Source: Candidatus Micrarchaeota archaeon
Lineage (GTDB): Archaea; Micrarchaeota; Micrarchaeia; Anstonellales; Bilamarchaeaceae
DNA: 64,000 nucleotides
Assembly: GCA_018304385.1 (NCBI GenBank)
Contig: JAGVWJ010000008.1
Coordinates: forward strand, 1 to 64,000
Reading direction: 5' to 3'
Positions 19,548 to 60,446 of the stretch are shown piece after piece; the stretch's first letter is position 1, and each line of letters starts with the position of its first letter. A model generated the notes under the pieces. It saw nothing but the letters and a program-made list of their open reading frames with translations, had not been told where the DNA came from and made no database searches. The translations under genes and the position numbers were made by a program.

Positions 19548-19829
19548 CGCCTCCGCCGGGGTTGACGGCCTTGCTGTCAAATCTTGTCCGACAGGACAAG
19601 GCTTTCGAACCCGGGTCGTGGACGAGCTGCTCAGTCCTGAGTTTTCTGTTCTGCGTTTCGCGTCACTAGTTTTTCTCAGGGCTTTTGACCAATGTCTTTA
19701 CTTTTGCCACAAGTATGGCAGAAGTCAAAAGTAATGACTGACAGGCCCATATGCTAACCATTGTGCTACTACTTAACGAAGTAGTTTTGGGGTGCCTTTT
19801 CCTAAAAGGCATAACTACACCACAGAGGC
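19548..19829 (-). tRNA. tRNA-Asp(GUC) with three introns (15/16, 37/38, 59/60)
   Basis: Exons 19829-19815, 19760-19739, 19624-19604 and 19561-19548 join to a 72-nt cloverleaf GCCTCTGTGGTGTAG|TGGTTAGCATATGGGCCTGTCA|CGTCCACGACCCGGGTTCGAA|CCCCGGCGGAGGCG; followed by T6. Confidence 0.92.
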
Positions 19830-19888
19830 ATAAAGAATATAAACGGTGTGGGGTAATCTTTTTAAGCGCTTACTTTTTATATCATCTT

Positions 19889-20551
19889 ATGAAAAAGATA
19901 AAAATCTTAGGAATGACGCTTGATACGTTCATGGGAATATTTATATCTCTCGTTACAGTAATCGCTGCTTGGACCTCAAACCAATCTGGTGATTACATCC
20001 AAGAGGCAAATGATTTAAACAGACAGTCCCTTAACCACCTTGTAAATGCAAGCAACTGGTGGAATTATTACCAAGCACATAGATTACGTGTGACACTGTT
20101 TGAAAACGATATAATTGATGAAAGCGGAAAAGATGTTTTTAAAATATTAGAAGAATATGATGATAAAGTCTCTAAGAACAACACGCCTATAAGACAAGAA
20201 CTATTAGATACACTAAAAGGAGAAGGAGTTAATACTGCAAAACTAGATAGCTATTTAACTGGCCTAGAGAAAAGTTCCTTAAAATATAAAGATGGACAAG
20301 AATACGCAAGAAATGCAGAAAAGGCACAAGCAAAAGCAGCGGATGCAGCCGCAGTTGCGACGGATTATGCAACTGCTTATCAGGTTATCACTCTTATACT
20401 AGTTATATCAATGGGCTTAGGAGGTATAGCAGTTATTCTAAACATACCTGGGCTTGCATTTGGTTCAATCTTAGTTGGAGTTGCGGGTATATTACATTTA
20501 TTATTAATTTTATTTGCTCCTGGAATAGTTGGATTAACCCCACTAAACTAG
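19889..20551 (+). CDS. DUF4337-like membrane protein
   Basis: Start at ATG 19889 (the track extension overlaps tRNA-Asp); N-terminal TM, ASNWWNYYQAH, two C-terminal TMs. Confidence 0.7.
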   Translation: MKKIKILGMTLDTFMGIFISLVTVIAAWTSNQSGDYIQEANDLNRQSLNHLVNASNWWNYYQAHRLRVTLFENDIIDESGKDVFKILEEYDDKVSKNNTPIRQELLDTLKGEGVNTAKLDSYLTGLEKSSLKYKDGQEYARNAEKAQAKAADAAAVATDYATAYQVITLILVISMGLGGIAVILNIPGLAFGSILVGVAGILHLLLILFAPGIVGLTPLN

Positions 20552-20615
20552 AAAGATATAAGAAACTCGTTTTTGTCTATATCTAGTAACATTTATAAAG
20601 TGTTATAAATATAAT

Positions 20616-22355
20616 ATGATGATGAGATTGCATTATAGCAACTCCACTAATTCCAATCAGAAAAACCCTAATCGCTTTAGGATAGCACATGCTATAAAAA
20701 ATATTGGGACTGCGATATTCGCAACATTTTTTCTAGCAAACACTGCACATGCTGCAGAAACAACCAGACCACGTACTAATTCTGATATAGCTATTTCAGG
20801 TGATGGAAATAATAGATCGCAGCTTGTTATTGGAGGAGAATATTTTAGATATAGAGATTCGGTCCCAACACTAGCTGGAGATTCTAATCAACATACAGAT
20901 CAACATACGGTAAGTGCCAGTTTGGCATTGCGTGTTGCAAACCCTTTATTTATCATTGGAAGGTATGCATATACAAATGCTGAATTGGATCTTAATCTTG
21001 CAAGTGGACCGTATAGTGGGGCTTATACTACAGCAGTTGATAGAAAGGATTCTATACTTGCAGGGCTTAAGCTAGTTCTTGATACAAATGCAGGGGCATT
21101 TTTTATTCAGGCATTAGGGGGTGTAATAATCCCCAGAGATTATAGAACAGAAGTAATTGGTATGCCTCCAATAGTTAATAACGCTCCAGTTGATTTTGAT
21201 GGTATGTTAGAAGGAGTGTATCTATCCCCAGCACAAAAATTCGCCATTTTTACTACAGTATTGCGCAATGCATTTGACCCATTTATATTTTCTTTGCAAG
21301 ATCGCCATTTGCCAAGTTTAGTAAATGGTGTTCCAACCGTTGTTGAGGCTAACGCAACAAGCCACCGTATATATCTACAACAAACAGATGATGGTGTCAC
21401 AGAACACCCAAACGGTAGGCGTTATCTTGGTTCTTTGGATTTATTTGTCCCTGCCTTTGGTTCAGATGAATTGTATGCGGGGCTTGATGGTGGGGTAGGA
21501 TATGATATCATTTGCCCACTTAATGAATGCGGAAATGAAGAAATACATAGATTTATGGCTAATGGCGGTGCTTTCTTCGATCTTGGGTCCATTCAAATTT
21601 CTATTGATTACAATCATCATGGCAAGGATAATATGCTTGTTCTAACAGTAGGTACGTACGCTGAAAGTAAAAAACTATTTTTTGGTGGAAGATACATTCG
21701 TCCACTTAATGACGCTAGAACAGAACATGCAGTAGTAAGGGCAGGTATTAACGAGGAAACTGAGGAGAGTTCACGCGATGGAACGGATAGTGGAGGTGGC
21801 GGGGATTTAGGGGGAAGTAGTCCTGATGGCAAAGATAAAAGAGATACTAAGGGAACAGAAATTACACCTCCAGAAGCAGGGCAAGAGGATGAAGTACAAG
21901 CGCCTCCAGACGCAGGTAGCCAACCTGACCCAATAAATGCTGGCAGAACAGTTGAAGTAACAGATTTACCTGCAGAGCTCCAAGGAAAAAACCAAAGAGA
22001 AATAGGAAGAATCCTAAATGTATTGGAATATGATTTCAATAATCTGACGTATGTGCCTTGGCAAAAGGTAATAAATGATTTAGTAAATACGGGTTACTTA
22101 GACACGAATAAAATAAATATAAGTACAGGACCTAAAAACAGACGGATGAAAAAAGCAGTTGAAGATCTCCAAAGAACAATTAACGAATATTTAGGAACGC
22201 GAAACCTTCAATATTATTATCGTGGCGAAAATACCACAACCCCATTAGATGATGACGGCCAGATTGGTGGAAGAACGGCTGCTGCAACATCAGCATTTCT
22301 AAAATTCGCAATAAATGAAATCAGAGCAGCCTATCAAATGGAACTGTTTGAATAA
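20616..22355 (+). CDS. Secreted protein: N-terminal beta-barrel-like domain, acidic/Pro linker, C-terminal peptidoglycan-binding-like domain; paralog of 15443..18520
   Basis: Signal ending TAHAA; SHRIYLQQTDDGVTEHPNGRRYLGSLDL matches THRLVLQEDETGVTGEPNARRWHGALEL; AVEDLQRTIN..DDDGQIGGRTAAA. Confidence 0.7.
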   Translation: MMMRLHYSNSTNSNQKNPNRFRIAHAIKNIGTAIFATFFLANTAHAAETTRPRTNSDIAISGDGNNRSQLVIGGEYFRYRDSVPTLAGDSNQHTDQHTVSASLALRVANPLFIIGRYAYTNAELDLNLASGPYSGAYTTAVDRKDSILAGLKLVLDTNAGAFFIQALGGVIIPRDYRTEVIGMPPIVNNAPVDFDGMLEGVYLSPAQKFAIFTTVLRNAFDPFIFSLQDRHLPSLVNGVPTVVEANATSHRIYLQQTDDGVTEHPNGRRYLGSLDLFVPAFGSDELYAGLDGGVGYDIICPLNECGNEEIHRFMANGGAFFDLGSIQISIDYNHHGKDNMLVLTVGTYAESKKLFFGGRYIRPLNDARTEHAVVRAGINEETEESSRDGTDSGGGGDLGGSSPDGKDKRDTKGTEITPPEAGQEDEVQAPPDAGSQPDPINAGRTVEVTDLPAELQGKNQREIGRILNVLEYDFNNLTYVPWQKVINDLVNTGYLDTNKINISTGPKNRRMKKAVEDLQRTINEYLGTRNLQYYYRGENTTTPLDDDGQIGGRTAAATSAFLKFAINEIRAAYQMELFE

Positions 22356-22444
22356 ACCAAATCTTTAAAATAAGCTATGTACCATAATATTTAACTGGTT
22401 CTCTCCGATTTTTTTATCTTCAGAGAGGGAACTGGGTTTTAATA

Positions 22445-23998
22445 ATGTCAGTTAAACGTGCATTAATATCTGTTTTTGATAAAAAGGGTATTGTAGAATT
22501 TGCCAAATCGCTTTCTGATCTTAATATAGAAATTATTTCTAGTGGTGGTACTGCCAAACTACTTAAAAGCGAGCAAATCAAAGTAACAGATGTTTCTACT
22601 TTTACGGGGTTTCCAGAAATGATGGACGGTCGCGTAAAAACGCTGCATCCGAAAGTACATGGTGCGATACTCGCTGATCGTTCAAAGAAAACACATTTAG
22701 AACAAGCGAAAAAACAAGGAATAGAACTAATTGATCTCGTAGTTGTTAACCTTTATCCTTTCGAACAGGTAATAAATAATAGTAATCTAGAAACAGCAAT
22801 TGAAAATATTGATATTGGTGGACCTGCGTTATTGCGGAGCGCTGCAAAAAATTATAAAGATGTTGCATGTGTTGTTAATCCTGCTCGCTACCCAGATATA
22901 ATAAATGAACTAAAAAATAATAAAAAAATAAGCGAAAAAACGCGCGAAACACTTGCATTGGAAGTATGGGAACACGTAGCGCATTATGATGTAATAATAG
23001 AAACCTATTTTAGAAAAGTATTCAAGAAGGATAAAAAACCTCCTGAATACTTAAATCTTACATTTAAAAAATGGCAGGATTTGCGCTATGGCGAAAACCC
23101 GCACCAAGGAGCAGCTATTTATATAGATACAAACTTCAACGGGCCATCAGTACTTAATGCAAAGCAATTACAAGGTAAACACCTCTCTTATAATAACATA
23201 CAAGATGCTGCATCTGCATTTGAGCTTGTTAAAGAATTTGATGAACCAACTGCAGTTATTGTAAAACATAATAATCCAAGCGGAGTTGCTTCTTCGCATG
23301 ACATAGTCGAAGCATATAAGCTTGCTAGGAGTGTTGATCCAGAGGCTGCATTTGGTGGTGTAGTCGCAATTAACCAGCCAGTAAGCGGGGATCTTGCAAA
23401 AGAAATAATTTCTGTTTTTGTTGAAATTGTGCTTGCGCCTAGTTTTAGCGAAGCTGCAAAGGATGTTTTCAAGGTAAGGAGAAATTTACGGTTGTTAGAA
23501 ATCATTGATTTCAAAACAAAACGAGCACCGTATAAAGAATATAAAACTGTTGCAGGCGGATTGCTTGCACAGGATGCAGATACGTTACTTTTGGAAAAAG
23601 GCATGCGATTTATTACAAAAAGAAAGCCCACACGCGAGGAGATGCAGGCAATGTTATACGCATGGAAGATTGCGAAATATGTTAAATCAAATGCAATAGT
23701 TTATGCAAGGCCAAATCGTGCTGTTGGCATTGGTGCTGGACAGATGAAGCGAGTTGATGCTGCTAAATTAGCTGCAATGATTGCACGAGACTACTCGGGC
23801 GAGATTAGTTTGCGTGGATGTGCAATGGCTAGTGATGCGTTCTTTCCATTTCGCGATGGTATTGATTATGCTGCAAAACTAGGCATAACTGCGATTATTC
23901 AACCTGGCGGCTCGTTAAAAGATGAAGAAGTAATCAAGGCTGCTGATGAACATAATATTGCGATGATATTTACTGGAGTGAGGCATTTTAGGCACTAA
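22445..23998 (+). CDS. purH: Bifunctional AICAR transformylase/IMP cyclohydrolase
   Basis: ALISVFDK, GRVKTLHP, IDIGGP, LRYGENPHQ, SYNN, VKHNNP, ASDAFFPF, IQPGGS. Confidence 0.97.
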   Translation: MSVKRALISVFDKKGIVEFAKSLSDLNIEIISSGGTAKLLKSEQIKVTDVSTFTGFPEMMDGRVKTLHPKVHGAILADRSKKTHLEQAKKQGIELIDLVVVNLYPFEQVINNSNLETAIENIDIGGPALLRSAAKNYKDVACVVNPARYPDIINELKNNKKISEKTRETLALEVWEHVAHYDVIIETYFRKVFKKDKKPPEYLNLTFKKWQDLRYGENPHQGAAIYIDTNFNGPSVLNAKQLQGKHLSYNNIQDAASAFELVKEFDEPTAVIVKHNNPSGVASSHDIVEAYKLARSVDPEAAFGGVVAINQPVSGDLAKEIISVFVEIVLAPSFSEAAKDVFKVRRNLRLLEIIDFKTKRAPYKEYKTVAGGLLAQDADTLLLEKGMRFITKRKPTREEMQAMLYAWKIAKYVKSNAIVYARPNRAVGIGAGQMKRVDAAKLAAMIARDYSGEISLRGCAMASDAFFPFRDGIDYAAKLGITAIIQPGGSLKDEEVIKAADEHNIAMIFTGVRHFRH

Positions 23999-24002
23999 AT
24001 TA

Positions 24003-24037
24003 CTGCTATGGGCATTGAGCCTTGAGCAGTGGGCAAA
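24003..24037 (+). repeat. Heptamer array
   Basis: CTGCTAT GGGCATT GAGCCTT GAGCAGT GGGCAAA. Confidence 0.75.
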
Positions 24038-24074
24038 CCAAAACTTATTTAAACTATTTTATAATATTAAATTC

Positions 24075-24815
24075 ATGCGAAAAATATTTTTATTACTCCT
24101 CCTAGTATCTTTTGTTCTTGCTGCACCTCCAGATTGGGTTAAACAAGGCGTAAAAATAACTTATACTGCAACACCTGGCGGAGATGTATCATATGAGGTT
24201 CTTAGTGTTTCTGCTACTGAAGTGAAAATTGATCAAAGCCCAGGTGGCGCACCAACTGATAATGCAAGCGCGGATTCTGGAAGTTTCTGGTATGATAAAT
24301 CAAAAACATCAACGCTTAGTCAGGATGATAGTATAGATGGATGGAAGATATTTGAAAAAGATGTCGTGGTAACTGCAGCTGGCAAAAGTTGGGTAACACT
24401 TAAAATGAAAAAAACTTTATTTGGCCAACAAACAGAAAGATGGGTTGATAAGGAAACCGGATTATTGATAAAACAAGCCATACCTTCACAAACAGTATTA
24501 TTAAAATCAATTAACCCGCCGTTTGGTTCTGAATCTGCAACACCAGTGCCATCTCCAATATTGTCTGGAACCCCTCAGCCACAACCATCTCCAAGCGATG
24601 ATTTGCCTCCGTTGCCTTCTGATGGGCAGCCTTCTCCGACTCCAAGTCCGCAACCAAGTGGGCAACCTACCCCCAGTAATACATCTGCGCCTTCTCCTGC
24701 ACCAGCCCCAGGACCAGTACCTGATTTAAAACCACCTGATAGCAATGTGCCATGCTGCCCAATTGCATTTATGCTACTTATTTTAGGATTTGTTGTTTAT
24801 AGACACAAGAATTAG
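24075..24815 (+). CDS. Secreted protein with a Pro/Ser-rich linker and a Cys-Cys-Pro C-terminal sorting-like signal
   Basis: MRKIFLLLLLVSFVLA signal; PQPSP repeats; PCCPIAFMLLILGFVVYRHKN terminus. Confidence 0.8.
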   Translation: MRKIFLLLLLVSFVLAAPPDWVKQGVKITYTATPGGDVSYEVLSVSATEVKIDQSPGGAPTDNASADSGSFWYDKSKTSTLSQDDSIDGWKIFEKDVVVTAAGKSWVTLKMKKTLFGQQTERWVDKETGLLIKQAIPSQTVLLKSINPPFGSESATPVPSPILSGTPQPQPSPSDDLPPLPSDGQPSPTPSPQPSGQPTPSNTSAPSPAPAPGPVPDLKPPDSNVPCCPIAFMLLILGFVVYRHKN

Positions 24816-24854
24816 CCTTCAGCAATGAGCCTTGAGCAGTGGGCCATGAGTTAC
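24813..24854 (+). repeat. Heptamer array starting at a TAG stop
   Basis: TAGCCTT CAGCAAT GAGCCTT GAGCAGT GGGCCAT GAGTTAC. Confidence 0.75.
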
Positions 24855-25165
24855 AATAAAGCATGTTCTCTTAAAACTTTTCTTAATGCGCCTTCAGTTT
24901 CCCAATGAGGCAATAATGCACGATCAACTAAAACTTCTTTAAATCTTATTCTGTCCCTTAATGTCGCAGACCTTCGACCCCCTTCTCGTGAGATATCAGT
25001 AGCTGTTCTAAGCTCTCTTCGTTCAACATCATAAACAAACCATCGTCTATCGTTGGGACCTTTTGCATAAATAGTAACCATTTTAGCTGGCTGATCTGGA
25101 AACCTATGAAAATAAGGCAGAACTCTATTTGGGTTATTTCTTGGATATCTATGTACAGAAACCAT
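24851..25165 (-). CDS. Arg-rich hypothetical protein
   Basis: 104-aa ORF with a TTTATATAAA box about 22 nt upstream. Confidence 0.55.
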   Translation of the reverse strand: MVSVHRYPRNNPNRVLPYFHRFPDQPAKMVTIYAKGPNDRRWFVYDVERRELRTATDISREGGRRSATLRDRIRFKEVLVDRALLPHWETEGALRKVLREHALL

Positions 25166-25200
25166 AGTTCTTATATGTTACAAAATTTATATAAATGTTA

Positions 25201-26229
25201 CTAAACATCTTCATAACAATAAACTTTTTTATCTGGCCCAACTACTGTATAAGGCTTATCAGGTTGTTTGTCCGAACATAATGGAAAACCAACAAGTGAT
25301 TCACTGCTTATTGTTTGATTATTAACATAAACACCAGCAGGAATATTATCTGGCATGCAAAATAATTTATCTCCCCTGGTAATAGCTATTGCACTTTCAG
25401 GGCAGTATCTATACCCATCACTAACAGTATTAAATATAACGCCAATAATTAACCCAATTATCTGGGATGACTTAATACAGCCTGGATCAGGAGATGGATT
25501 GTTGTCTCCTTGAACAGTATAACAAACCCCACTACTATCCCTTTGAATCTCAATTATTCTATGCATTATAGGAAGATCAAAAGATGTTGATCTATATGCG
25601 ATGATATTTCCAACTTGCAATCGTTCTGGATCAAAATTAGTTGTAAATACTGCTGTATGTTCTGCAGTTATTGTTGGATGCATTGATTTGGTATCGGTTA
25701 CAGATGAAAGATTTAGTTTAGACTGTTTCAAGATTAATGAATCCCTTGATAAAAGAAAATCAAGGTTTGCAATAACTGGGGAACTAGGTATATCTTTTGG
25801 CAAACGACCTGATGATTGGAAGTTTCTAAGTTTTTCTAATATTACTTCGTAGTCCCTGGTTAGATTTTGATACAATGACTTAAGATTATTATGACTATTA
25901 TTCAAAGAGATATAAGATGCGCTCAAATCATTATAATTTTTAATATAGTTATTATGTGCTGTATTTAGACTAGAGTAGTCTAACATAAGTTTTTTATTGG
26001 ATAAATCAAGTTCATCATAAGATTTATTTAGAGATTCATGCGCATCACGCAACTCATTGTATTTGGATTGCAAGGTTTTATCTTTCTCTTCAAGATTATC
26101 ATAATCCTTTTGCAGCTCTTCGTATTTTTTCTCCATTGCATTCTTATCATTGACTGCCTTATTCAATTCTTCTTTTGATACACAGCCAAAGAGTATTAGT
26201 ACCAGTGCTAGAAAAATTATTTTTCTCAT
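25201..26229 (-). CDS. Lipoprotein with a long coiled coil and an S26 (signal peptidase I, Sec11-type) domain
   Basis: Start at ATG 26229, lipobox LFGC; heptad coil; SMHPT, IMHRI, GDNN catalytic motifs. Confidence 0.85.
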   Translation of the reverse strand: MRKIIFLALVLILFGCVSKEELNKAVNDKNAMEKKYEELQKDYDNLEEKDKTLQSKYNELRDAHESLNKSYDELDLSNKKLMLDYSSLNTAHNNYIKNYNDLSASYISLNNSHNNLKSLYQNLTRDYEVILEKLRNFQSSGRLPKDIPSSPVIANLDFLLSRDSLILKQSKLNLSSVTDTKSMHPTITAEHTAVFTTNFDPERLQVGNIIAYRSTSFDLPIMHRIIEIQRDSSGVCYTVQGDNNPSPDPGCIKSSQIIGLIIGVIFNTVSDGYRYCPESAIAITRGDKLFCMPDNIPAGVYVNNQTISSESLVGFPLCSDKQPDKPYTVVGPDKKVYCYEDV

Positions 26230-26298
26230 GAATAGTTTATTGGAAATAGATTTATAAGAACATCCCAAAACAACAATCCAAGACCCAAAACAAAAAAA

Positions 26299-26593
26299 TC
26301 CCGCCTGCCTGATTTGTTCCATTGAACCCTTTTTAGAATCTAATTATTTTTTTATGTTAAAAAGGGTTCGTCCAAAAACGACATTAAAATAACCATCGTT
26401 TAAAACCTTCGCCGTTTCTTTGGGGGTGAAGGCCTCAGCCATTGACACGACTTTCGTGTCAATATTTGTCAACATTGTTGACAATTCACTTTCTTTAGAA
26501 GAAAGGGGCTATGGCTTGAACAAGCAACCTATCGGTTTCCGCCTTTTAGGAAAAGGCGGCCTAAAACTCACTAGGGGATTGAGCTAAGGCGGG
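26299..26593 (-). pseudogene. Degenerate tRNA-Tyr-like gene with a 202-nt T-loop intron (58/59) and a hairpin replacing the anticodon loop
   Basis: Acceptor CCCGCCT/AGGCGGG plus A73 (C1-G72, Tyr identity); T-stem GCTTG/CAGGC; TTCAA|intron 26515-26314|AT; T7 downstream; no GG in the D-loop and no GTA anticodon. Confidence 0.75.
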
Positions 26594-26620
26594 ATTATTA
26601 TTTATATGAGAGAATAACTT

Positions 26621-26914
26621 TTAAGGTCTTGCATTTTGCTGATTTTGCCAATATTTAGCCTCGGCAGCCTCTACATCAGCAATTGTTCTGTTATTATTCC
26701 TGCACCAATTGTCTACTAAACGCGTATATAATTCAGGATCGCTAATGCCTGGAATATTTCCACCGCTTCGAATTAACTGTAGCAATTTTATAATGCCCAT
26801 CGGAATCCCATCAATTGGACCTTCATTTAGCACTCCTTTTTCTACATGTAGTATTGGTCTTCTTGCTGGTAATTGCACTGGTTCCCCTCTTAATTTTAAT
26901 AATGCACTTCCCAT
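26621..26914 (-). CDS. Hypothetical protein
   Basis: 97-aa ORF with an AT-rich promoter-like region upstream. Confidence 0.5.
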   Translation of the reverse strand: MGSALLKLRGEPVQLPARRPILHVEKGVLNEGPIDGIPMGIIKLLQLIRSGGNIPGISDPELYTRLVDNWCRNNNRTIADVEAAEAKYWQNQQNARP

Positions 26915-27049
26915 ACAATATATTTAATTACGACAATTTATAAATATGTGTAACTAAATTCCTCGCAGCATTGTTTTTGGCCCATTATCAAAAAATTCGT
27001 ATTTACGAAAATCGCAAAAGGTTTAAATAGTAGATGAGTAATCCAGTAC

Positions 27050-27460
27050 ATGAAGCTCGATGACAAAGACAAGAAAATAATTTCCTTATTGCGGCAAAAT
27101 GCGCGCGTTGCAAATACAACAATGGCCAAGCAAGTAGACTTAACAGAAGGTGCAGTACGCCATCGCATTGATCAGCTTGTTAAACAAGGGGCAATTAAAA
27201 GATTTACAATTGACACATCTGCGGAAAGCGGATTTTTCGCAATAGTCATGACAAAGGCTAGGGATGATCCTAAAAAAGCAATGCGCGAAATAATTGCAAC
27301 GAGGATTCCAAAGGAAGCATATGAAGTATCTGGAGATTTTGATGGATGCCTAATTATAGAAGGAGAAAGTATTGAAGCTATTGATGATGAGATAGATAAA
27401 ATAAGAAAACTAAAAAGCGTGAGCGATACGAAAACTTATGTTGTTTTAAGGAAATACTAA
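27050..27460 (+). CDS. Lrp/AsnC family transcriptional regulator
   Basis: LDDKDKKIISLLRQNAR HTH; YEVSGDFD RAM domain. Confidence 0.93.
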   Translation: MKLDDKDKKIISLLRQNARVANTTMAKQVDLTEGAVRHRIDQLVKQGAIKRFTIDTSAESGFFAIVMTKARDDPKKAMREIIATRIPKEAYEVSGDFDGCLIIEGESIEAIDDEIDKIRKLKSVSDTKTYVVLRKY

Positions 27461-27498
27461 ATAATAAATATTGGATGAACCGCGGCTTCAATGAGCTG

Positions 27499-27569
27499 AA
27501 AAAATGCCAAGCGTGTGAGGAGCTAAGGGGACTGGTAATCCTTGCAGTATTTACCTCATCATGCTTCCC
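27499..27569 (-). ncRNA. Candidate small structured ncRNA
   Basis: TTTATAA box at 27597-27591, long stem AAGCATGATGAGG/CCTCACACGCTT, T6 tail, no meaningful ORF. Confidence 0.4.
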
Positions 27570-27601
27570 AATAACATCTTCCTGATTCTATTATAAATCG
27601 T

Positions 27602-27928
27602 CTATTGACCTACTAGTCTATCAATTTTAGCTGCTATTATAAAGTCATTTTCTCCTAGTCCATTAATAGCATGACTAAAAAGCTGTATGCGAACGGCTTT
27701 ATAGAATATAGTAATTGTGGGATAATGGTCTTCCTCATTAATGATTGCTTTGACTTTATCTACAAATTTCATTGCTTCTAGAAAATTCTTGAATGTAAAA
27801 TCACATTGCAACTGGTTATTTTTTATTTCCCAACTTTTAACATATTGGAGTAGTTCTTTTATTTTCTCTGGATCAAGCGGCTTTAGACCAGCCCTTGCTG
27901 GTTGGCATTTCATTTCTGATAAATTCAT
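27602..27928 (-). CDS. Pterin-4-alpha-carbinolamine dehydratase family protein
   Basis: FTFKNFLEAMKFV, EDHYP (HHP in canonical enzymes), NDFIIAAKID; start at MNLSEMKC. Confidence 0.88.
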   Translation of the reverse strand: MNLSEMKCQPARAGLKPLDPEKIKELLQYVKSWEIKNNQLQCDFTFKNFLEAMKFVDKVKAIINEEDHYPTITIFYKAVRIQLFSHAINGLGENDFIIAAKIDRLVGQ

Positions 27929-51267: not shown

Positions 51268-51268
51268 T

Positions 51269-52696
51269 ATGACAACACCAAAATTAATCTTTGAGTATAA
51301 TACGAAAAACACAGAGCATGTGCCAAACGAAAATGCAGAAGTTGATCTACCAAACGATCTAAAACGCAAAGAACTAAGCATTCCAGATGTAAACGAAGTA
51401 GATGTAATCCGCCATTTCACAGAACTTAGCAAAAAAAATTATGGGGTAGATAATGGGTTTTATCCGCTTGGTTCATGCACAATGAAATATAACCCAAAGA
51501 TAAATGAGGATGTAGCCCGTTTTCATGGCTTTGCTAATTTACATCCACAAAGCCCATTGCTAAACGTGCAAGGCTCATTGCAATTAATGTACGAATTAGA
51601 GCAAATGCTTTGCGAAATAACTGGAATGGATGTATTTAGCTTACAGCCATCAGCAGGCGCGCATGGTGAGCTTACTGCATGCATGATTACAAGAAAACAT
51701 TTCGGTGCGAAACGAAATAAGGTAATAATTCCAGATAGCGCACATGGTACGAATCCTGCAAGCGCAGCAATGTGTGGATTTGAAATTGTAGAAGTGAAAA
51801 CAAATTCTTCTGGTGGTGTTGATTTAGACGAGTTGAGAAGCAAGGTTGACAGTAATACTGCATTGCTTATGCTTACAAATCCAAGTACACTCGGATTATT
51901 TGAAGAGAACATAGTCGAAATAAATAAAATAATGCATGATGCTGGAGCGCTTACATATTGTGATGGAGCAAACATGAACGCAATGCTTGGAATTACACGG
52001 CCAGGTGATCAAGGATTTGACATGATGCATTTAAACTTACATAAAACATTCAGCACGCCGCATGGTGGTGGCGGACCTGGTTCTGGGCCAGTTGGCGTAA
52101 AGAAATTCTTAGAAAAATATCTACCTGTCCCAAGAATAGTCAAGAAAGACGATAGCTACGCACTAGAATTTAACATACAGGAAAGCATTGGTCGCGTGCG
52201 AAGCTTTTTTGGAAACTTTGGCATGCATGTGCGCGCTTATACTTACATTAAGAGTTATGGAAAAATGCTAAAGCGCGTTTCGCAGATTGCTGTTTTAAAT
52301 GCAAACTACATAATGCGCTCTCTTGAGAATCATTATCAACTTCCATACAATAAAACCTGCGCACATGAATGTGTATTTTCTGGTGGGTCATTTGCCAAAT
52401 ATGGAATTCATACAATGGATATTGCTAAGCGCTTATTGGATTATGGGTTCCATGCACCAACAATATATTTCCCATTAATTGTGAAAGAGGCAATAATGAT
52501 TGAGCCAACAGAAACAGAAGGCAAAGCAATGCTCGATGCGTTTATTAACACAATGAAAAAAATAGCTGAAGAGGCAGAAAAAAATCCAGATTTGTTACAT
52601 AATGCGCCAGTCAGCACGCCAGTTGGGAGGTTAGATGGCGTTCGCGCTGCAAGACAACCAAATCTAAGATACGAGCCTGTTTGCAGGATATGCTAA
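51269..52696 (+). CDS. gcvPB: Glycine dehydrogenase subunit 2
   Basis: [44 protein letters not shown]. Confidence 0.97.
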
Positions 52697-52738
52697 TTAT
52701 TTTACATGCGCATTCGCAAATCTACTGAACTTCGTTCG

Positions 52739-54691
52739 CTATCTTTTCAGCATAGCTGAAAATCTTTTTGCTAATTCATTAGCACCATCTGTACCAAGTG
52801 ATGGATTACCTTCCAACAAGAATAGGGCGACTGCTCGATAAAACTGTTTTAAACTATCTTTAACTACAAAGATTGTTCCATCATAAACTGGAACTCCAAG
52901 AACTAGTTTTGGCGGTCTGTAGTGAACACCTTCTTTCTCTAGTGCCTTTCGTATTTCTTCATCTTCAATATTATCTAAAGAGGGAACAGCAACAATATTG
53001 ACGCTTCCATCATTTACTCTAATATAACCATGTTTCTTTGAAATATCTTTTCTTTTTATAAAGTCTCTAAAATCTGCAACTGCCTGTTCATATTTTCTTG
53101 CAATAAAACCAGCATTAATTCCTTCAACAGCTCTTATTTCTAATTTTAAACCGTCAAATCTTTCAGTATAATAACTCGCATCTTTAATTCCAATATCTGC
53201 CAATTGCGATAAATTAACCCTTGTATCTCCAACATATGGAATTTGCACGCTTGGGATGTGGTCTCTTTTTATCCATCCAACATTTAATGCAACTACTGTT
53301 GCGCCAATTAAAATTGCTGCAGTTGTTGCGATCTTAAAAGGAATGCGAACGCTGGCCTTAATTATTTTTCCAACAGTCCATTTTCTTTCTGGCTTGATTT
53401 GTTCTACCTTACCTTCGCCTAGCTCTTGTGTCATTGCAATCTCAAAGTCCTCGCGAAATACACGCATGCTCGGAAATCTTTTTGCAGGATCTTTATCTAA
53501 TGCACGCTGGAATACATCATTTAGAAACTTACCAGCTTTCACACCCATTTCATTTAAGCTAGGTGGCGGTTTTGAAAGATGACCCATGCGAGGATCATCT
53601 TCAAATAATTTTTTCCCAGTTAATGCCTCTACGATTGTGGCAGCCAAAGAATAAACATCTGCTGCTGCAGTTAGCGGCTGCCCCAAAATTGCTTCCCTAG
53701 GCATGTAATGAGGACTTCCCATACTCATTCCGGTCCTAGTCAAATGATCCTGATTTGACTCTCCTTGAATCTTTGCAATTCCAAAATCAGCTACCTTTAC
53801 AAGTAATTTTCCGCCTTCTTCTCTAACAATTATATTTGCTGGTTTTATATCACGATGTAGAACACCTTTGTCATGCGCGTATTCAAGCGCATCAAAAACC
53901 TGCCTGAAAATAGCTAGTAACTCTTTTTGAGATAACCTTTCTCTTTTTCTGTTTTTTTCAGCAAGAATATCTGCAAGGTTTTTTCCTTCGATAAAATTCA
54001 TCACTAATGCAGCTTCGCCTGTTGGAAGAAAATGATAATTATTAAGCTGAACTATGTTTGGGTGATCCAACATTGCAAGTGCTCTTGCCTCCTGCTCGAA
54101 TCGTGCCCTAAATTCAGCACTTTGTGACATAACTAAAAGATTAAGGGATTTTATTGCAACCTTCTGACCAGTTACAGGGTGCTCACCAACGAATACATAA
54201 CCCATACCACCCATTCCGATGAGTTCTTTTACAACGAAACCGGAAATATTTGTATTAATAAATCTCTCTACATCTAAAAGTATTGATGTTGCTTGATCTA
54301 ATGCGCTCGCTAGGATTTTCTCGTCTTCTTTTGTTTGTGGTACTGCGATAACTGCAATATTACCATTTTCCATTCGTGCAAGCTGAATAATTTTTACAAC
54401 CGGGATTATTTCTGCAATTAGAGCAGCGGTCTTAGCAATTCTTTCTTCTATACCATCCTGCAAGGTTTGCTCTCCAACAATTTTTATAAAAACCTCTTTT
54501 CTGCTTTCTGCATGTGAAGCAACATAAATATTGCCTATTGACCTTTGGACAAGATAGTTTGCAATCGTAGTTCCTATCATGGACGTGCGATTAATGGCTT
54601 CTGCTAGCGGCATTGGTTTTATTCCAACAGGAGTAATTCTTCTATCTGCTTGAGTTGGCCCAAGCACATCAACTCGTGGTGGTGTTGCCAT
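52739..54691 (-). CDS. Hanks-type Ser/Thr protein kinase with an N-terminal extension, a TM helix and a C-terminal domain
   Basis: GMGGMGYV, VAIK, HRDIKPAN, DFGIAK, GSPHYMPRE, DVYSL; TM IATTAAILIGATVVAL. Confidence 0.93.
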   Translation of the reverse strand: MATPPRVDVLGPTQADRRITPVGIKPMPLAEAINRTSMIGTTIANYLVQRSIGNIYVASHAESRKEVFIKIVGEQTLQDGIEERIAKTAALIAEIIPVVKIIQLARMENGNIAVIAVPQTKEDEKILASALDQATSILLDVERFINTNISGFVVKELIGMGGMGYVFVGEHPVTGQKVAIKSLNLLVMSQSAEFRARFEQEARALAMLDHPNIVQLNNYHFLPTGEAALVMNFIEGKNLADILAEKNRKRERLSQKELLAIFRQVFDALEYAHDKGVLHRDIKPANIIVREEGGKLLVKVADFGIAKIQGESNQDHLTRTGMSMGSPHYMPREAILGQPLTAAADVYSLAATIVEALTGKKLFEDDPRMGHLSKPPPSLNEMGVKAGKFLNDVFQRALDKDPAKRFPSMRVFREDFEIAMTQELGEGKVEQIKPERKWTVGKIIKASVRIPFKIATTAAILIGATVVALNVGWIKRDHIPSVQIPYVGDTRVNLSQLADIGIKDASYYTERFDGLKLEIRAVEGINAGFIARKYEQAVADFRDFIKRKDISKKHGYIRVNDGSVNIVAVPSLDNIEDEEIRKALEKEGVHYRPPKLVLGVPVYDGTIFVVKDSLKQFYRAVALFLLEGNPSLGTDGANELAKRFSAMLKR

Positions 54692-54695
54692 TTTA

Positions 54696-55742
54696 TCATC
54701 TTTTTAATAGCCTATCAAGTAGTCTTCTTCCTGGAGGCCTTGTATCGGTGGTGCTCTCAAGCGATCCTGCATTACGTAATCTTTCAAGGTCTTCTCTGAC
54801 TTCAGTTGCTGAATCATATCTTTGCGTTTTATCCTTAGAAAGCAATCTTAATGCAACTGCTTCAAGTTCTTTTGAAACAGCAGCATTAAGCGTTCTAACT
54901 GCAGCTGGAGTACGCTCTATGTGCTGCGTTCTAATCATTAGGCTTCTTGTTTTTTCATCAGGATCATCGCTTTTAAATGGAACTGTGCCAGTAAGCAATT
55001 CATACAGAATAATACCAAAAGAGTAGAGATCAGCCTTTGCATCTACATTGCTGCTTGCTATTTGTTCTGGAGACATATATTCTGGGGTTCCCATTGTTAC
55101 TCCCATGGTAGTACGTGTAAAACCTACACCACCTTCTATTCTTGAGACGCCGAAATCAATTATTTTTAATATACCATCTTCACATATAAAAATATTGTCT
55201 GGTTTTAAATCCCGATGAACTATTCCAGTACTGTGTATCTCTTCTAACGCTTCTAATATCAGAATACCCATTGCCACTGCGTCTTTTATTGGAATTCTCA
55301 TATCTTTTAGTATATCAGATAGTACTGCTCCCTTAAGTAATTCAGTAACAAGAAAAGTAGCTTCTGTATCCTCAAAATAATCATAGCAGGTAAGTATAGA
55401 AGGATGGCTAAGTTGTGTTAGAAAGAATGCTTCTGCCCTAAAGCGTTGTGTTATTGCTGGATCTTTCCTTCCTATTTTTATCGCAATCTCGTCACCTACT
55501 GCTAAACCATCCTCAAATCTTCTTCCCTTATATACCGCTCCGACACTACCATCTCCTATTTTTCTTTCTACTAGGTATGTGCCTTTAGTACCTTTAAGTC
55601 TCTTCGCGGTATAATCCTTGACTGGATCTTGGGAAAGAGGTTCCTTTCCAAAAAATGCAGTAGCCCTTCTGACAAATGCCTGCTCGCCACCACGTAGACT
55701 AACAGGTAGGACAAACATTAACTTAGTTCGTTGCTGACTCAT
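54696..55742 (-). CDS. Hanks-type Ser/Thr protein kinase, soluble
   Basis: GDGSVGAVY, IAIK, HRDLKPDN, DFGVSR, GTPEYMSPEQ, DLYSFG. Confidence 0.95.
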   Translation of the reverse strand: MSQQRTKLMFVLPVSLRGGEQAFVRRATAFFGKEPLSQDPVKDYTAKRLKGTKGTYLVERKIGDGSVGAVYKGRRFEDGLAVGDEIAIKIGRKDPAITQRFRAEAFFLTQLSHPSILTCYDYFEDTEATFLVTELLKGAVLSDILKDMRIPIKDAVAMGILILEALEEIHSTGIVHRDLKPDNIFICEDGILKIIDFGVSRIEGGVGFTRTTMGVTMGTPEYMSPEQIASSNVDAKADLYSFGIILYELLTGTVPFKSDDPDEKTRSLMIRTQHIERTPAAVRTLNAAVSKELEAVALRLLSKDKTQRYDSATEVREDLERLRNAGSLESTTDTRPPGRRLLDRLLKR

Positions 55743-55921
55743 GTCATATATTATAGAGGGAAATGTTTATAAAATCACCTTGAAACACAAAAAGTAACAT
55801 ACGTTTAAAACCTTGTGTATTTTCGTCAATTGACGTTTTTCTACCATAATTAGCAACATTGACTGCACTTTGATGCGCTTTTGCTTGCAATTTTTAAATC
55901 TGTTTTGCTAATTACTTACTC

Positions 55922-56800
55922 ATGACAAAACTGCCGCAAGGCGATGAGATACGCGAGTATGAGCACGTAAAAAAACTTACAAAGGATAAAAAACTACATA
56001 CTATTTGCGTTGAGGCGCGCTGTCCGAATATAAATGAATGTTGGGCAGGCGGCACTGCAACATTCCTGCTTATGGGTGATATATGCACACGCTACTGTAG
56101 ATTTTGTCATACTAAAAGCAGCCGTGAAGGATTACCAATGCATGAACTAGCCAGCGAACCAGAAAACTTGGCAAATGCAGTTGGAGAAATGAAACTTGAA
56201 TATATTGTACTGACTTCAGTTGATCGCGATGATTTAGAAAATCAAGGTTCGCAGCATTTTGCAGATTGTGTACGCGCAGTTGAGCAGGCGCATCCAAATG
56301 TAATTATTGAATTGCTTATTCCTGATTTCCGCGGAGATGAATCTTGTATAAAACGGGTTGTTGAATCTGGCGCAGAAGTAATTGGACATAACATGGAAAC
56401 AGTTGAAAGCTTGCAGACAACTGTACGCGATCGACGCGCTGGTTATACACAAAGCCTGCATGTGCTTACTACAATAAAAAAATTAAATCCAAAAATTTAT
56501 ACAAAAACCGCGCTTATGCTTGGTTTAGGTGAGAAAGATGAGGAAATAGAAAAAACAATGGATGATTTACGTGCAATAGATTGTGATATTATTACGTTTG
56601 GGCAATACCTTCAGCCAAGTCGCAAGCATTTAGCAGTGCAAGAATATGTTACACCAGAGAAATTTAAACACTGGCAAAAGCGAGCAGAAGAAAAAGGATT
56701 TTTATACTGTGCATCTGGCCCGTTCGTACGCAGCAGCTACCGTGCTGGCGAGTTTTTTATGAAAGGAGTTATAGAGAAAAGAAAAAAAGAAAAGAAATAG
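55922..56800 (+). CDS. lipA: Lipoyl synthase
   Basis: CVEARCPNINEC (CX4CX5C), CTRYCRFC, RSSY. Confidence 0.97.
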   Translation: MTKLPQGDEIREYEHVKKLTKDKKLHTICVEARCPNINECWAGGTATFLLMGDICTRYCRFCHTKSSREGLPMHELASEPENLANAVGEMKLEYIVLTSVDRDDLENQGSQHFADCVRAVEQAHPNVIIELLIPDFRGDESCIKRVVESGAEVIGHNMETVESLQTTVRDRRAGYTQSLHVLTTIKKLNPKIYTKTALMLGLGEKDEEIEKTMDDLRAIDCDIITFGQYLQPSRKHLAVQEYVTPEKFKHWQKRAEEKGFLYCASGPFVRSSYRAGEFFMKGVIEKRKKEKK

Positions 56801-56807
56801 CTTAAAT

Positions 56808-58151
56808 TTACTCTACACTCCAATTATATCTTTCTTCAGCTCTTGAAACCTTATCTCTTTCAATATAAGTTCTTGCCTTTTCTGAAAAGGTATTTGGATA
56901 AGTATCTTTTTGATACTCGATTTTTAATTTGGCGCGGGACCCTGATTCATCTATGTTAAATATTCCATAATATACGCTATCATGAGTAGTAATTACTATC
57001 TTATTGTTTTTATAATCAGCTTCCCAATCACCAGAAAGTATGACTGATCCGCTATCCTCTACCCCAACAACGCGCTGTTTTTTGTAATATTTTGTATTAT
57101 TGGTGAAAAATACAAGCACATCAGGAGTTTCGTCAATTACCCATTGCTCTGACTTTAGATACCATTCACCAATAAGCTCTCCTTTATGGCCTTTATGAAA
57201 CAAAATTGGATTAGTAAGATACGGTTCCCATGGCGTTGGCACGACTCCGGATACATCTTTGCCCTTTGAAAGTATTGGATCTACTTCTTTTAGATATTTT
57301 TCAACGAACTGTTTTTTCTCATTCTCTTGTAAATAATCAAATGGAGAAACTAGTGTTGCTCCCTTTATGAATTTATACCAATGAACAACACCATCTCGCC
57401 TATGCTGATCTGCAACATTAAATTCAGCAAACTGATATCCTGGCGCATGTGCAAATTTTTCACCATAACCAACTGGATCACCTGCCTTTACCTTATCACC
57501 AGGTTTTACGAGAGATCTTTGAACATGCATATGCTCGCCCCAAAGCCCATCTCCATAATAAATAATTATATTGGGAGTATCAACTGAGCCCCCTTCTAGA
57601 TCATTGACGTAAACAACTACACCATCAGCCCAACTACGAATAGGAATATTATCTTTAATGGATATCCATTCATGATCTAATCCTTCAGCATGGCCTCCTG
57701 GATGCGCCCCATATGCGCCAATCTGAGCGTATAGTATATCCTCTAACTTGGCAGGTAATATAAGTCGTACAGAAGAAGCGCCTTCTGGCAATGGTTGTGT
57801 TACAGCATCAGTAACCCATTCTTTAGGCTTTGCAGCCTCTGGCACTTCACATAATTCATGTGATAGGTTTTTATTACAAAAATCATTGCATCTTCCTACA
57901 TTGCTCTTGCAAAAAACAAAACAATCTTGCAGTGATGAACAAAAACCCATTCCTTTTGTTTGTGTTAGATCCTCTTCTACAGGTTCAGCTTTTTGTTCTT
58001 TTTCTATTTTTATCTCTGGTTTAGTTTCAGTTTTATTTTCCTTTGTAGATGTTTCAATTTTTGTTTCCTCTTTCTTCACTAATGTTTTATTTGTATCAGA
58101 GACATTTACAGTTTTCTCCGTAACATTTTCTTGTTGAACACATCCGCTCAA
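56808..58151 (-). CDS. M23-like lipoprotein with a Cys-rich motif; signal peptide disrupted
   Basis: LSGC lipobox at the start; HAEGLDH, HMHV, VKPGDKVKAGDPVG; the upstream ATG 58162 (MKAY) is out of frame. Confidence 0.7.
   Translation of the reverse strand: MSGCVQQENVTEKTVNVSDTNKTLVKKEETKIETSTKENKTETKPEIKIEKEQKAEPVEEDLTQTKGMGFCSSLQDCFVFCKSNVGRCNDFCNKNLSHELCEVPEAAKPKEWVTDAVTQPLPEGASSVRLILPAKLEDILYAQIGAYGAHPGGHAEGLDHEWISIKDNIPIRSWADGVVVYVNDLEGGSVDTPNIIIYYGDGLWGEHMHVQRSLVKPGDKVKAGDPVGYGEKFAHAPGYQFAEFNVADQHRRDGVVHWYKFIKGATLVSPFDYLQENEKKQFVEKYLKEVDPILSKGKDVSGVVPTPWEPYLTNPILFHKGHKGELIGEWYLKSEQWVIDETPDVLVFFTNNTKYYKKQRVVGVEDSGSVILSGDWEADYKNNKIVITTHDSVYYGIFNIDESGSRAKLKIEYQKDTYPNTFSEKARTYIERDKVSRAEERYNWSVE
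58052..58150. repeat. 99-bp perfect direct repeat, copy 1
   Basis: Identical to 59107-59205; encodes SGCVQQENVTEKTVNVSDTNKTLVKKEETKIE. Confidence 0.92.
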
Positions 58152-58243
58152 TACGCTTTCATTACCAAATACCTAACCTTATAAATTTTTAATACTTGAT
58201 AATAACACGAAATGGTTCCAATTAGATTACCTTTATCCTAAAT

Positions 58244-59224
58244 TTATCTTTCAGTTATATTATGTAGTAAACATCCTGGAGCAACCCAAGCTTCTTGTTT
58301 GTAAACGTCTTTACCAATAAACTCTTCCCAATCATTTGCTAATCTATTTATTTTTTCTTTATACATTGGTTTTAATGAGTTGTCTAAAAATTCAAATGGG
58401 CAATACTTAATAATATTTTGACCCCCAGTCCATACATTAATCTCAACATTTCCAAATTCTATTTTTCCGTAAGAAGGGGATACTTCAGCTAGTTCTTGGC
58501 CCACTAGGACCTTGTCTCCGGGTTTTATACGCACATTATAAACATGCTCAAATCCAACGATCCAAGGAGAGGATTCATGAGTTTTTATAGAAATAAGATA
58601 GTCTTGTGACGGCTCGAAAAAATTCACATCTGTAATAACTCCCTCAATCGGGGATATAACTTTAGTGCCTACAGGAACATTAAACCCTATTTCTGGAAGC
58701 AGCTTGTCACCCATCTCATTAATTACTCTATGAGCAAACTCAGTAAAAATTTTATCGTCAACATAGTTCTTGTTTTCAAATAAAAAATCTCCCGCCATAT
58801 TTGTTTTTCTGTCCCAAGGTTCTATTTTGATGCCTAAATTTTTTAGGACGGGCTCCATTTCTTGTAGTTTCTCTGTTTGTTCCGTTTCTTCTTGAGGTAG
58901 AAAAATTATTTTGCATAGCTCATTCTTACTTCCTTTACAATATGATTCACAACGTCCGCGATTACTCAGGCAAAAATTTTTACATTCTCCTTCTCCTGTA
59001 CATAAATCACCAAGTTTAGGAATCTGGGATGCATTTGAAAGGATTGTTTTATTATATTTTTCCAAAGAATTGTTGAGAGTTGTTTCTGCAGGTAATATGG
59101 ACTCGTTTTCAATTTTTGTTTCCTCTTTCTTCACTAATGTTTTATTTGTATCAGAGACATTTACAGTTTTCTCCGTAACATTTTCTTGTTGAACACATCC
59201 GCTCAGATTGCATAAGTAACTCAT
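58244..59224 (-). CDS. M23-like lipoprotein with a Cys-rich motif; signal peptide missing
   Basis: LSGC; VISPIEGVITDV, FEHV, IKPGDKVLVGQEL; the only nearby in-frame ATG (59224) overlaps the divergent gene start. Confidence 0.65.
   Translation of the reverse strand: MSYLCNLSGCVQQENVTEKTVNVSDTNKTLVKKEETKIENESILPAETTLNNSLEKYNKTILSNASQIPKLGDLCTGEGECKNFCLSNRGRCESYCKGSKNELCKIIFLPQEETEQTEKLQEMEPVLKNLGIKIEPWDRKTNMAGDFLFENKNYVDDKIFTEFAHRVINEMGDKLLPEIGFNVPVGTKVISPIEGVITDVNFFEPSQDYLISIKTHESSPWIVGFEHVYNVRIKPGDKVLVGQELAEVSPSYGKIEFGNVEINVWTGGQNIIKYCPFEFLDNSLKPMYKEKINRLANDWEEFIGKDVYKQEAWVAPGCLLHNITER
59107..59205. repeat. 99-bp perfect direct repeat, copy 2
   Basis: Identical to 58052-58150. Confidence 0.92.
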
Positions 59225-59495
59225 GAAATCTGGAAAAAACATCTACAAAGCTGGAAAGCTAATTAAAATAGACTTGAAATACGATGACGCAATTCTAGAG
59301 ATTAAGATTCATGGAGATTTCTTTCTTTATCCTGAAGATGCGATAGAAAAATTGCAATCGCAATTAATTGGCACTGTCATTGACAAAAATGCAATAAAGA
59401 CTCGAATTGATTCAATTCTAGAACGAGAAGGCATCGAACCATTTGGATTCACAAGCGAACAGCTTGCTGAAGCGATTATTGGTGCTTGTAAATAG
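59223..59495 (+). CDS. Lipoate-protein ligase C-terminal/accessory subunit (LplB-like)
   Basis: YKAGKLIKI, IKIHGDFFLYPEDAIEKL, FGFTSEQL; near lipA and gcv genes. Confidence 0.85.
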   Translation: MKSGKNIYKAGKLIKIDLKYDDAILEIKIHGDFFLYPEDAIEKLQSQLIGTVIDKNAIKTRIDSILEREGIEPFGFTSEQLAEAIIGACK

Positions 59496-59550
59496 CTTTT
59501 TAATCCTTTCTATAGTAACAGATGATCAAATCAAATTACGGTGAAAGAAT

Positions 59551-59649
59551 ATGATAAAGCCAATGAGAATGGAAGAAGAAGAAGATTGGGAAGACGAAGA
59601 TTTCGACGAAGAAGAATGGGATGAGGAAGAAGAAGAAGACGAATTCTAA
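59551..59649 (+). CDS. 32-aa hyperacidic peptide
   Basis: GGTGA SD at 59540-59544; MIKPMRMEEEEDWEDEDFDEEEWDEEEEEDEF*. Confidence 0.7.
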   Translation: MIKPMRMEEEEDWEDEDFDEEEWDEEEEEDEF

Positions 59650-59945
59650 TTCAATTTTTCTAATTCTACTTTTATTTCTTTTGTTTCTCCTCTATCTACA
59701 CGAAATGCATCTACGTATCCGGTATAACCGTCCTTTGTTATTACTATTGTGTGCTTACCAGGAGATAATGAGACCTCTAAGGAGCCACTGGCAGGCGTAA
59801 ACCCTCTAGGAACGTCATCTATAATTACCCTTGCGCCTTCTGGTAAAGAACTAATTTCTGCAAAACCTGTAGGCGAATTTGCCTTGCTAATAATTAGAAA
59901 CAATAGAAAAAACATACCAGTTACAAAAACAACCTTTTCAGCCAT
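59646..59945 (-). CDS. PEGA domain protein
   Basis: N-terminal TM; ISSLPEGARVIIDD, GFTP, LSPGKHTIVITKDGY. Confidence 0.88.
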   Translation of the reverse strand: MAEKVVFVTGMFFLLFLIISKANSPTGFAEISSLPEGARVIIDDVPRGFTPASGSLEVSLSPGKHTIVITKDGYTGYVDAFRVDRGETKEIKVELEKLN

Positions 59946-60014
59946 CTAATCACCCTTAACATATTATAAAGAAATAACAATATAAATCATTCTGCAAGTA
60001 TATTAATAATTAAC

Positions 60015-60446
60015 GGGCCCGTAGCTCAGCCAGCCTTGAATTGCAAATTCAAGATTTGCAGGCAAGGCCTGCAATGGACAGATCGGCAGCCTTCTATGCC
60101 CAGCCTTTTTAGAATCTTGAGTATTTCTCATGGAAAAAAGGCTAGGCTTAACCCAAAAACTAGGATTACTTGTTTTGGGGCTCGACCTTTTCGACATTAA
60201 AATATAGAAGTGTTGAAAAGGGCGAAAGAGGATAGCTGTAGGACATGGGTTCAAAGCCATATCCCCTTTCTTAGGAAGAAAGGGGCTGAGTCATTCACCC
60301 CCAAAGAAGCGGTGATTGTCTGAGTTATACCTAAAATTGCCGACGCATGCTTTGCATGCGTCTAAAGCGCATTTATAAGAAAAATCTTAGGATAGCGCGG
60401 CTATTTCGCATAGGTATAACAATGGACGAAATTCCCATCGGGCCCG
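60015..60446 (+). tRNA. tRNA-Arg(UCU) with three introns (17/17a, 37/38, 59/60)
   Basis: Exons 60015-60031, 60075-60096, 60234-60255 and 60433-60446 join to 75-nt GGGCCCGTAGCTCAGCC|TGGACAGATCGGCAGCCTTCTA|AGCTGTAGGACATGGGTTCAAA|TCCCATCGGGCCCG; one C11-U24 mismatch. Confidence 0.9.

Follow-up and report, generated by a model that had tools for sequence, protein, structure and literature searches.

We consider it likely that the tRNA introns of a Candidatus Micrarchaeota archaeon, as found in a 64,000-nucleotide (nt) stretch of its genome (the window; contig C20, positions 1-64000), are of the enzyme-spliced bulge-helix-bulge type and are built of a few short, structured modules that have multiplied within one Micrarchaeota family. 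Highly similar introns, represented by the modules termed A and B below, are found in tRNAs of different identity and at different positions of the tRNA, and intron paralogues are detected genome-wide by blastn with E values down to 1e-34. Strong profile matches to the modules (E<1e-4) are confined, bar five, to the 41 tRNA genes of our census, which occupy 0.55% of the genome. The assembly to which the window belongs comprises 1.53 Mb in 65 contigs, with 37% G+C and a completeness of 89%; it is referred to as G000, related genomes are G001, G002, G004 and so on, and C and L denote a contig and an extracted locus, respectively.

Shared blocks define a small set of intron modules

Local alignment scores of four intron pairs were compared with those of 2000 dinucleotide shuffles, a check proposed in an earlier, sequence-only reading of the window, and in each pair the shared blocks scored above all of the shuffles (0/2000). 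Intron 1 of tRNA-Arg(UCU) and intron 3 of tRNA-Asp(GUC) had been said to have blocks in common, and this is borne out (z 6.8), as is the likeness of Arg intron 3 to the T-loop intron of a tRNA-Tyr-like gene (z 12.0). The 3' half of the Tyr-like intron had been read as antisense to Arg intron 2, and its reverse complement indeed matches that intron (z 7.9; sense control, z 2.4); moreover, a profile built from sense copies of the module common to the Tyr, Leu and Ser genes matches Arg intron 2 on the opposite strand only (E 5e-12). A further proposal, that a hairpin of Asp intron 1 recurs inverted in the anticodon loop of the Tyr-like gene, holds for the inverted recurrence (z 11.7 for Asp intron 1 aligned with the reverse-complemented 5' part of the Tyr-like gene; sense control, z 2.2) but not for the location, which is the remnant of a 37/38 intron in an apparently decayed gene.

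Modules were delimited from the intron paralogues and then used for profile searches of the genome. Module A is a whole intron of 42-43 nt (AGCCTTG..CAAGATTTG..CAAGGCC..CAA). Module B is the 5' part of long introns and consists of GCCAT, a 10-bp hairpin, CTGAG, TTCACCCCCAAAGAA and GGTGA, while modules E and D are alternative 3' parts of such introns. Module C corresponds to Arg intron 2 and includes module D reversed, and module H is a 31-nt hairpin (GTTTTGGGcc-GCCTTTT-CCT-AAAAGGC-gg). Modules A, B and E thus form intron ends, as a whole intron, a 5' part and a 3' part, respectively; H, D and a nested insert described below are internal.

Module A is hosted by tRNAs for Asp, Arg, Leu, Met, Thr, Ala and His, and module B by those for Arg, Leu, Ser, Ala, Pro and Cys and by the tRNA-Tyr remnant, at positions 59/60, 58/59 and 37/38. 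Long introns are mosaics, in which B is combined with E in Arg(UCU), Ala(UGC) and Pro(CGG), with D in Leu(UAA), Ser(UGA) and the Tyr remnant, and with other sequence at position 37/38 of Cys(GCA). All tRNA-gene copies of A, B and E are in the sense orientation; five genes carry module D in sense and two, Arg(UCU) and Thr(GGU), in antisense, and module H is found six times in sense and seven times in antisense. The modular spread proposed earlier therefore stands as regards multiple copies, mosaic structure and distribution across tRNAs and positions, but inversion, which was part of the same proposal, is limited to the internal modules D and H.

The interrupted tRNA-Asp and tRNA-Arg genes

Neither ARAGORN nor Rfam finds any tRNA in the raw 64-kb window; ARAGORN calls tRNA-Asp(GTC) and tRNA-Arg(TCT) only once the proposed introns are removed in silico, which restores a normal cloverleaf. 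Both genes were delineated by in-silico splicing with ARAGORN and a cloverleaf solver. The tRNA-Asp(GUC) gene (19548..19829, minus strand, as are its introns) has 72 nt of exon in four pieces and 210 nt of intron. Its intron 1, in the D-loop at 15/16 (54 nt; 19761..19814), combines an antisense H hairpin module with a second hairpin; intron 2, at 37/38 (114 nt; 19625..19738), is of largely unique sequence and shows a canonical bulge-helix-bulge central helix, CUGU/GCAG, with 4/4 pairs; and intron 3, in the T-loop at 59/60 (42 nt; 19562..19603), is a complete copy of module A. The tRNA-Arg(UCU) gene (60015..60446, plus strand, again with its introns) has 75 nt of exon and 357 nt of intron. Intron 1, in the D-loop at 17/18 (43 nt; 60032..60074), is likewise a complete copy of module A; intron 2, at 37/38 (137 nt; 60097..60233), is module C, containing D in antisense; and intron 3, in the T-loop at 59/60 (177 nt; 60256..60432), consists of module B (60256-60318) followed by module E (60347-60430).

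The CTGA boxes of Arg intron 3 had been mentioned in connection with a possible function of the excised circles. As read from its sequence, the intron has CUGA twice, only GUGAUUG and no RUGAUGA C box, at spacings unfit for a box C/D guide RNA, and thus no proper C/D arrangement. The sole box C/D-like pair noticed, GUGAUGA with a terminal CUGA, is in the anticodon-loop intron of tRNA-Met(CAU) (G000 C40:13110-13382, minus strand), a gene with three introns that also carries module C in its D-loop and module A in its T-loop.

Structure and conservation of modules A and B

An alignment of 17 module A copies from nine genera shows invariant blocks and variable arms that remain paired. In the two-hairpin fold 92% of the positions are paired, with 23 double-change cells as compared to 8.2 in shuffles (0/500), and slid controls reach 24-41% pairing. 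An alternative long-range helix, GCCUUG/CAAGGC, flanks the splice sites and is 99% paired, yet nearly invariant. In the tRNA-Met copy (AGCTTTG..CAAAATTTG..CAAAGCC), a change in one 5' base is accompanied by changes in the two bases with which it can alternatively pair, which suggests that both folds matter. At the splice junctions, module A copies present two to four of the four central pairs together with a 6-bp flanking helix; the minimum-free-energy folds of the junctions are only motif-like. Finally, base pairing between the host exon and the four intron bases that precede the terminal AA is seen at 43/68 positions, whereas permutation of the introns over the hosts gives 29.0 ± 2.7 (0/5000 permutations). 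The contrast of D-loop with T-loop hosts accounts for most of this match, to which related copies do not contribute independently.

In module B, the hairpin keeps its pairing through compensatory changes and matched changes in length (22 copies, six genera), and the block TTCACCCC is invariant across all 22 copies. The complement of this block is not found elsewhere in the genome, and TTCACCCCCAAAGAA, considered as an antisense to some target, has no complement in the genome outside the module copies.

Turnover of intron sites among relatives

The core motif of module A is present in 13 of the 61 genomes of the family, and a pattern search returns 21 matches as compared to two for a reversed control pattern. 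The 17 aligned copies reside in D-loops, in T-loops at 59/60 and in one RNase P RNA gene, and involve at least 10 tRNA species. Module B is found in 12/61 family genomes and in 6/23 genera. The Tyr-like gene region, with H, B and D, has no match in 16 genomes from other families of the order.

The search for empty sites in sister genomes, also put forward in the sequence-only reading, was fruitful: same-genus orthologues of Arg, Asp, Leu(UAG) and Tyr are empty or differently filled. The syntenic tRNA-Arg(UCU) of G002, a genome of the same genus, reads GCTCAGCC|TGGACAG, without the D-loop intron, and has a different intron in its T-loop. The 37/38 intron of tRNA-Asp is absent in G002 and G005 and belongs in G001 to module C, the family of Arg intron 2, while the T-loop of the same tRNA holds module A in G000 and module B in G002 and is empty in G005. 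In tRNA-Leu(UAG), whose exons are identical in the two genomes, the T-loop contains A in G000 and B with D in G002. The T-loop of tRNA-Tyr, in turn, is empty in G001, has module B in G015 and bears unrelated introns in G012 and G005.

A probably decayed tRNA-Tyr gene

The Tyr-like gene (26299..26593, minus strand) is the sole tRNA-Tyr-like gene of the assembly. It keeps a C1-G72 acceptor stem and the T-arm; compared to the tRNA-Tyr(GTA) genes of G001, G005, G012 and G015, it is without the 3' half of the D-arm and without the GUA anticodon, and two pairs of the anticodon stem are mismatched. From its sequence we read it as a decayed copy, or possibly as an assembly fault; it could be a pseudogene or an assembly collapse, or the real gene could lie in the 11% of the genome that the assembly lacks. 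A split tRNA was also considered and rejected, as the missing middle exon was sought elsewhere in the assembly and not found.

The gene carries a sense H module (GTTTTAGGCC-GCCTTTT-CCT-AAAAGGC-GG; 26537..26567, minus strand). Because the 37/38 intron of the intact tRNA-Tyr of G001 ends with the same module, we take this hairpin to be the remnant of the 3' end of a former 37/38 intron. The T-loop intron, at 58/59 (202 nt; 26314..26515, minus strand), consists of module B, split by a nested two-hairpin insert of 48 nt (26441..26488, minus strand) that is multi-copy in the relatives G004 and G005, and then of module D. This intron shares 88-89% identity with its counterpart in the T-loop of tRNA-Leu(UAA) in the same genome (89% over 126 nt; C33:7980-8105), a likeness that would fit a recent copy or a gene conversion inside the genome, and 77% identical to the T-loop introns of tRNA-Leu in G001 (CAA) and G002 (UAG).

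tRNA genes of the whole genome

Across the whole genome, ARAGORN and Rfam yield only four tRNA genes. Our census, made with an acceptor/T-arm finder and a cloverleaf solver of our own and with some hand curation, arrives at 41 genes totalling 8434 bp. Forty of these are interrupted, tRNA-Ser(GCU) being the only one apparently without an intron, and introns account for about 63% of the tRNA gene length. The intron option of ARAGORN was no remedy, as it gave several wrong identities, spurious Leu calls among them; the gene that it calls tRNA-Tyr(GTA) at C59:33574-33706 was rejected as such, since it has G1 at the acceptor start and a loop CTGTTA|intron|A, and is assigned to Asn(GTT). Also in G000, C51:14498-14747 reads as a tRNA-Cys(GCA) gene with a 37/38 intron containing module B and a 65-nt intron in the T-loop. 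Because standard finders catch four of about 41 tRNA genes here, the annotations of such genomes are badly incomplete.

Copies outside tRNA genes

Dispersed copies outside genes exist, but they are few (H and D in G000, B in relatives). Module H occurs outside introns at C53:248-279, C23:46805-46830, C55:2631-2661 and C33:8308-8338, each time preceded by AACAG. It lies 3-4 nt 5' of position 1 of tRNA-Leu(UAA) and tRNA-Ser(UGA), behind this common motif, and two copies immediately precede the start codons of protein open reading frames; these extra-intronic copies may be leader or promoter-proximal elements. The arrangement of H before a tRNA recurs 5' of tRNA-Leu genes in G002. That H is a stray CRISPR repeat was considered and discarded, there being no arrays in the genome. 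Module D is found outside tRNA genes at C64:12434-12500.

Among the relatives, module B is found outside tRNA genes at loci L048, L049, L055 and L060, some of them intergenic. One copy sits between two protein genes, and another is antisense and directly 5' of an intron-less tRNA-Ala. At L055:1380-1700 (G059:C63) module B is flanked by 50-nt direct repeats, the repeat including the 3' end of an open reading frame of 347 aa, and at L060:1350-1800 (G015:C3) it is flanked by 35-nt direct repeats, present in three copies. Moreover, the RNase P RNA gene of G004 (RF00373, E 2.5e-13) contains an exact insertion of a 55-nt copy of module A (L074:1471-1525; G004:C30), a site that is empty in the RNase P RNA gene of G000 (C40:14199-14404; L098). 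To our knowledge, no comparable intron has been described in an RNase P RNA. A replacement of RNase P by the splicing endonuclease in leader processing need not be invoked, since the RNase P RNA gene is present.

Comparison of filled and empty sites in the Arg D-loop, the Asp T-loop and the RNase P RNA gene shows exact insertions and no target-site duplication. The introns had previously been likened to miniature inverted-repeat transposable elements (MITEs); with no target-site duplication, no Y1 transposase and no TnpB found, the likeness is one of analogy and not of membership. A gene for a reverse-transcriptase-like protein, a relative of the group-II-intron type, is present in G000 (C2:18337-19364, minus strand; L097:1285-2312). 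It is broken into two frames (124 and 239 aa) that overlap, lies at the end of a contig and scores 104 bits against a family cut-off of 300.

A broad-specificity splicing endonuclease

A 399-aa protein encoded on C28 has a full-length match (E 1e-129) in the ε2 endonuclease of Candidatus Micrarchaeum acidiphilum ARMAN-2 (PDB 4FZ2), in keeping with a Micrarchaeota-like (DPANN) host. The ARMAN-2 enzyme cuts relaxed motifs in vitro (PMC3239211), and by homology the host is predicted to encode a broad-specificity ε2 splicing endonuclease able to cut non-canonical sites.

How the modules may have spread

We propose that modules are gained, swapped and lost through DNA-level events, namely insertion, recombination between copies and inversion. 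They would persist only where the transcript presents a motif cut by the ε2 endonuclease, that is, in the D-loop at 15-18, at 37/38 and in the T-loop at 58-60, and at these permissive positions they would cost the host little. DNA-level events are favoured because internal modules invert and because copies occur outside tRNA genes. More tentatively, and with somewhat less than even confidence, we suggest that the modules are transposase-less hairpin elements that move at the DNA level, that landing in a structured RNA gene creates a spliced intron de novo, the last four bases of which are then tuned to the exon, and that module A is also a two-state RNA that alternates between a splice-competent and a two-hairpin fold. 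If true, this would answer the long-standing question of how tRNA introns arrive in archaea.

Several points weigh against a family of spliced, mobile modules. The splicing of these introns is itself predicted from their sequence; several junctions give relaxed motifs only, with two or three of the four central pairs, and minimum-free-energy folding does not yield textbook bulge-helix-bulge structures. Outgroups often bear an unrelated intron at the same place, so that gain and loss are indistinguishable at most polymorphic sites, and copies from related genomes are not independent, so that the counts overstate the number of separate events. Neither a Y1/RAYT (REP-associated tyrosine transposase) protein nor TnpB (PF01797, PF07282) was found in the 89%-complete assembly. 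In addition, that A, B and E are found in sense only could be explained by selection for splicing or equally well by a route through RNA.

Such a route, in which an excised intron is reverse-spliced, through reversed endonuclease and ligase reactions, into another pre-tRNA at a site capable of forming a bulge-helix-bulge, reverse-transcribed and recombined into the gene, would also fit units that are whole introns, exactly inserted without target duplication, in sense throughout and matched to the host exon in their last bases, as module A is, although simple selection would suit these features too and is by itself expected to leave sense-only copies. The gene at C2:18337-19364 could supply the reverse transcriptase, but its frame is split, its score falls far below the cut-off and it lies at a contig end; moreover, D and H occur in both orientations within introns, and B, D and H are found outside any spliced RNA gene. 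We regard transposition through RNA as unlikely. Similarity without mobility could arise if the shared blocks were functional RNAs, protein-binding or guide, hosted by the introns, released as circles and kept alike by selection. Consistent with this are the near-invariance of TTCACCCC and of the CUGAG linker in the 22 copies of module B from six genera, with arms that vary under compensation, the retention of two mutually exclusive alternative folds by module A and the joint change of three mutually pairing positions in its tRNA-Met copy. The complement of the conserved block, however, is absent elsewhere in the genome, a RUGAUGA C box at the spacing of box C/D RNAs is missing from Arg intron 3, and orthologous tRNAs lack the module or bear another one; since the scatter over positions and hosts would still require mobility, a purely functional origin of the likeness seems improbable. 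Chance, or convergence from the demands of the splice motif and an A/T-rich hairpin composition, might be suspected in a genome of 37% G+C with modules rich in T-run/A-run stems and hairpins that match on both strands. This last possibility is very remote: it is refuted by the shuffle and control tests, none of the 2000 dinucleotide shuffles reaching the observed scores and the reversed pattern giving two matches as opposed to 21, and the matches extend up to 126 nt at 89% identity, with loops and flanks conserved besides the stems.

Relation to known systems

How archaeal tRNA introns arrive becomes a testable question here because three circumstances coincide: close genomes differ at single intron sites; 42-nt whole-intron units allow filled and empty sites to be compared base by base; and the same units also occur outside tRNA genes, namely in intergenic DNA and in an RNase P RNA gene. 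This unusually modular case thus offers a handle on the arrival of such introns.

Transposed families of tRNA introns are known in Thermoproteales (Fujishima et al., 2010, Mol Biol Evol 27:2233; summarised in PMC4090602 and cited in PMC3239211). As that work is summarised there, the two cases are alike in that the host has an endonuclease of relaxed specificity and that gain is inferred from close relatives. On the same basis they differ in that the present introns belong to a Micrarchaeota (DPANN) lineage with an ε2-type endonuclease, are long (up to 202 nt) and mosaic with internal modules in both orientations, and share their modules with 5' flanks, intergenic DNA and an RNase P RNA gene. 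The phenomenon matches one known from Thermoproteales; its novelty here lies in the lineage, the modular build, the inversions and the hosts other than tRNA genes. ARMAN-2 has the same endonuclease architecture, and its introns likewise occupy 59/60 and further non-canonical positions, where the motifs are relaxed (PMC3239211, PMC3488258). In that organism 56% of the tRNA genes are disrupted, mostly by short introns, and no intron families have been described (PMC3239211, PMC3488258), whereas here 40 of 41 genes are interrupted, about 63% of the gene length is intron and the introns belong to repeated families.

The modules also resemble repetitive extragenic palindromes and the mosaic elements built from them (REP/BIME), as well as MITE-type elements, in being short, non-coding, multi-copy hairpins with nested insertion, both orientations and intergenic copies. 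They differ from these in showing no target-site duplication, with no RAYT/Y1 transposase or TnpB found, and in that the copies are overwhelmingly inside structured RNA genes, from which an enzyme removes them at the RNA level. Finally, a 2026 census of Asgard archaea likewise reports that nearly all tRNA genes are interrupted, that standard finders miss many introns and that gains recur at motif-capable sites. That census found no general route of arrival, neither copying between tRNA genes nor mobile elements; in contrast, copying between tRNA genes is plain in the present genome, and the modules are common to tRNA introns and to sites outside tRNA genes.

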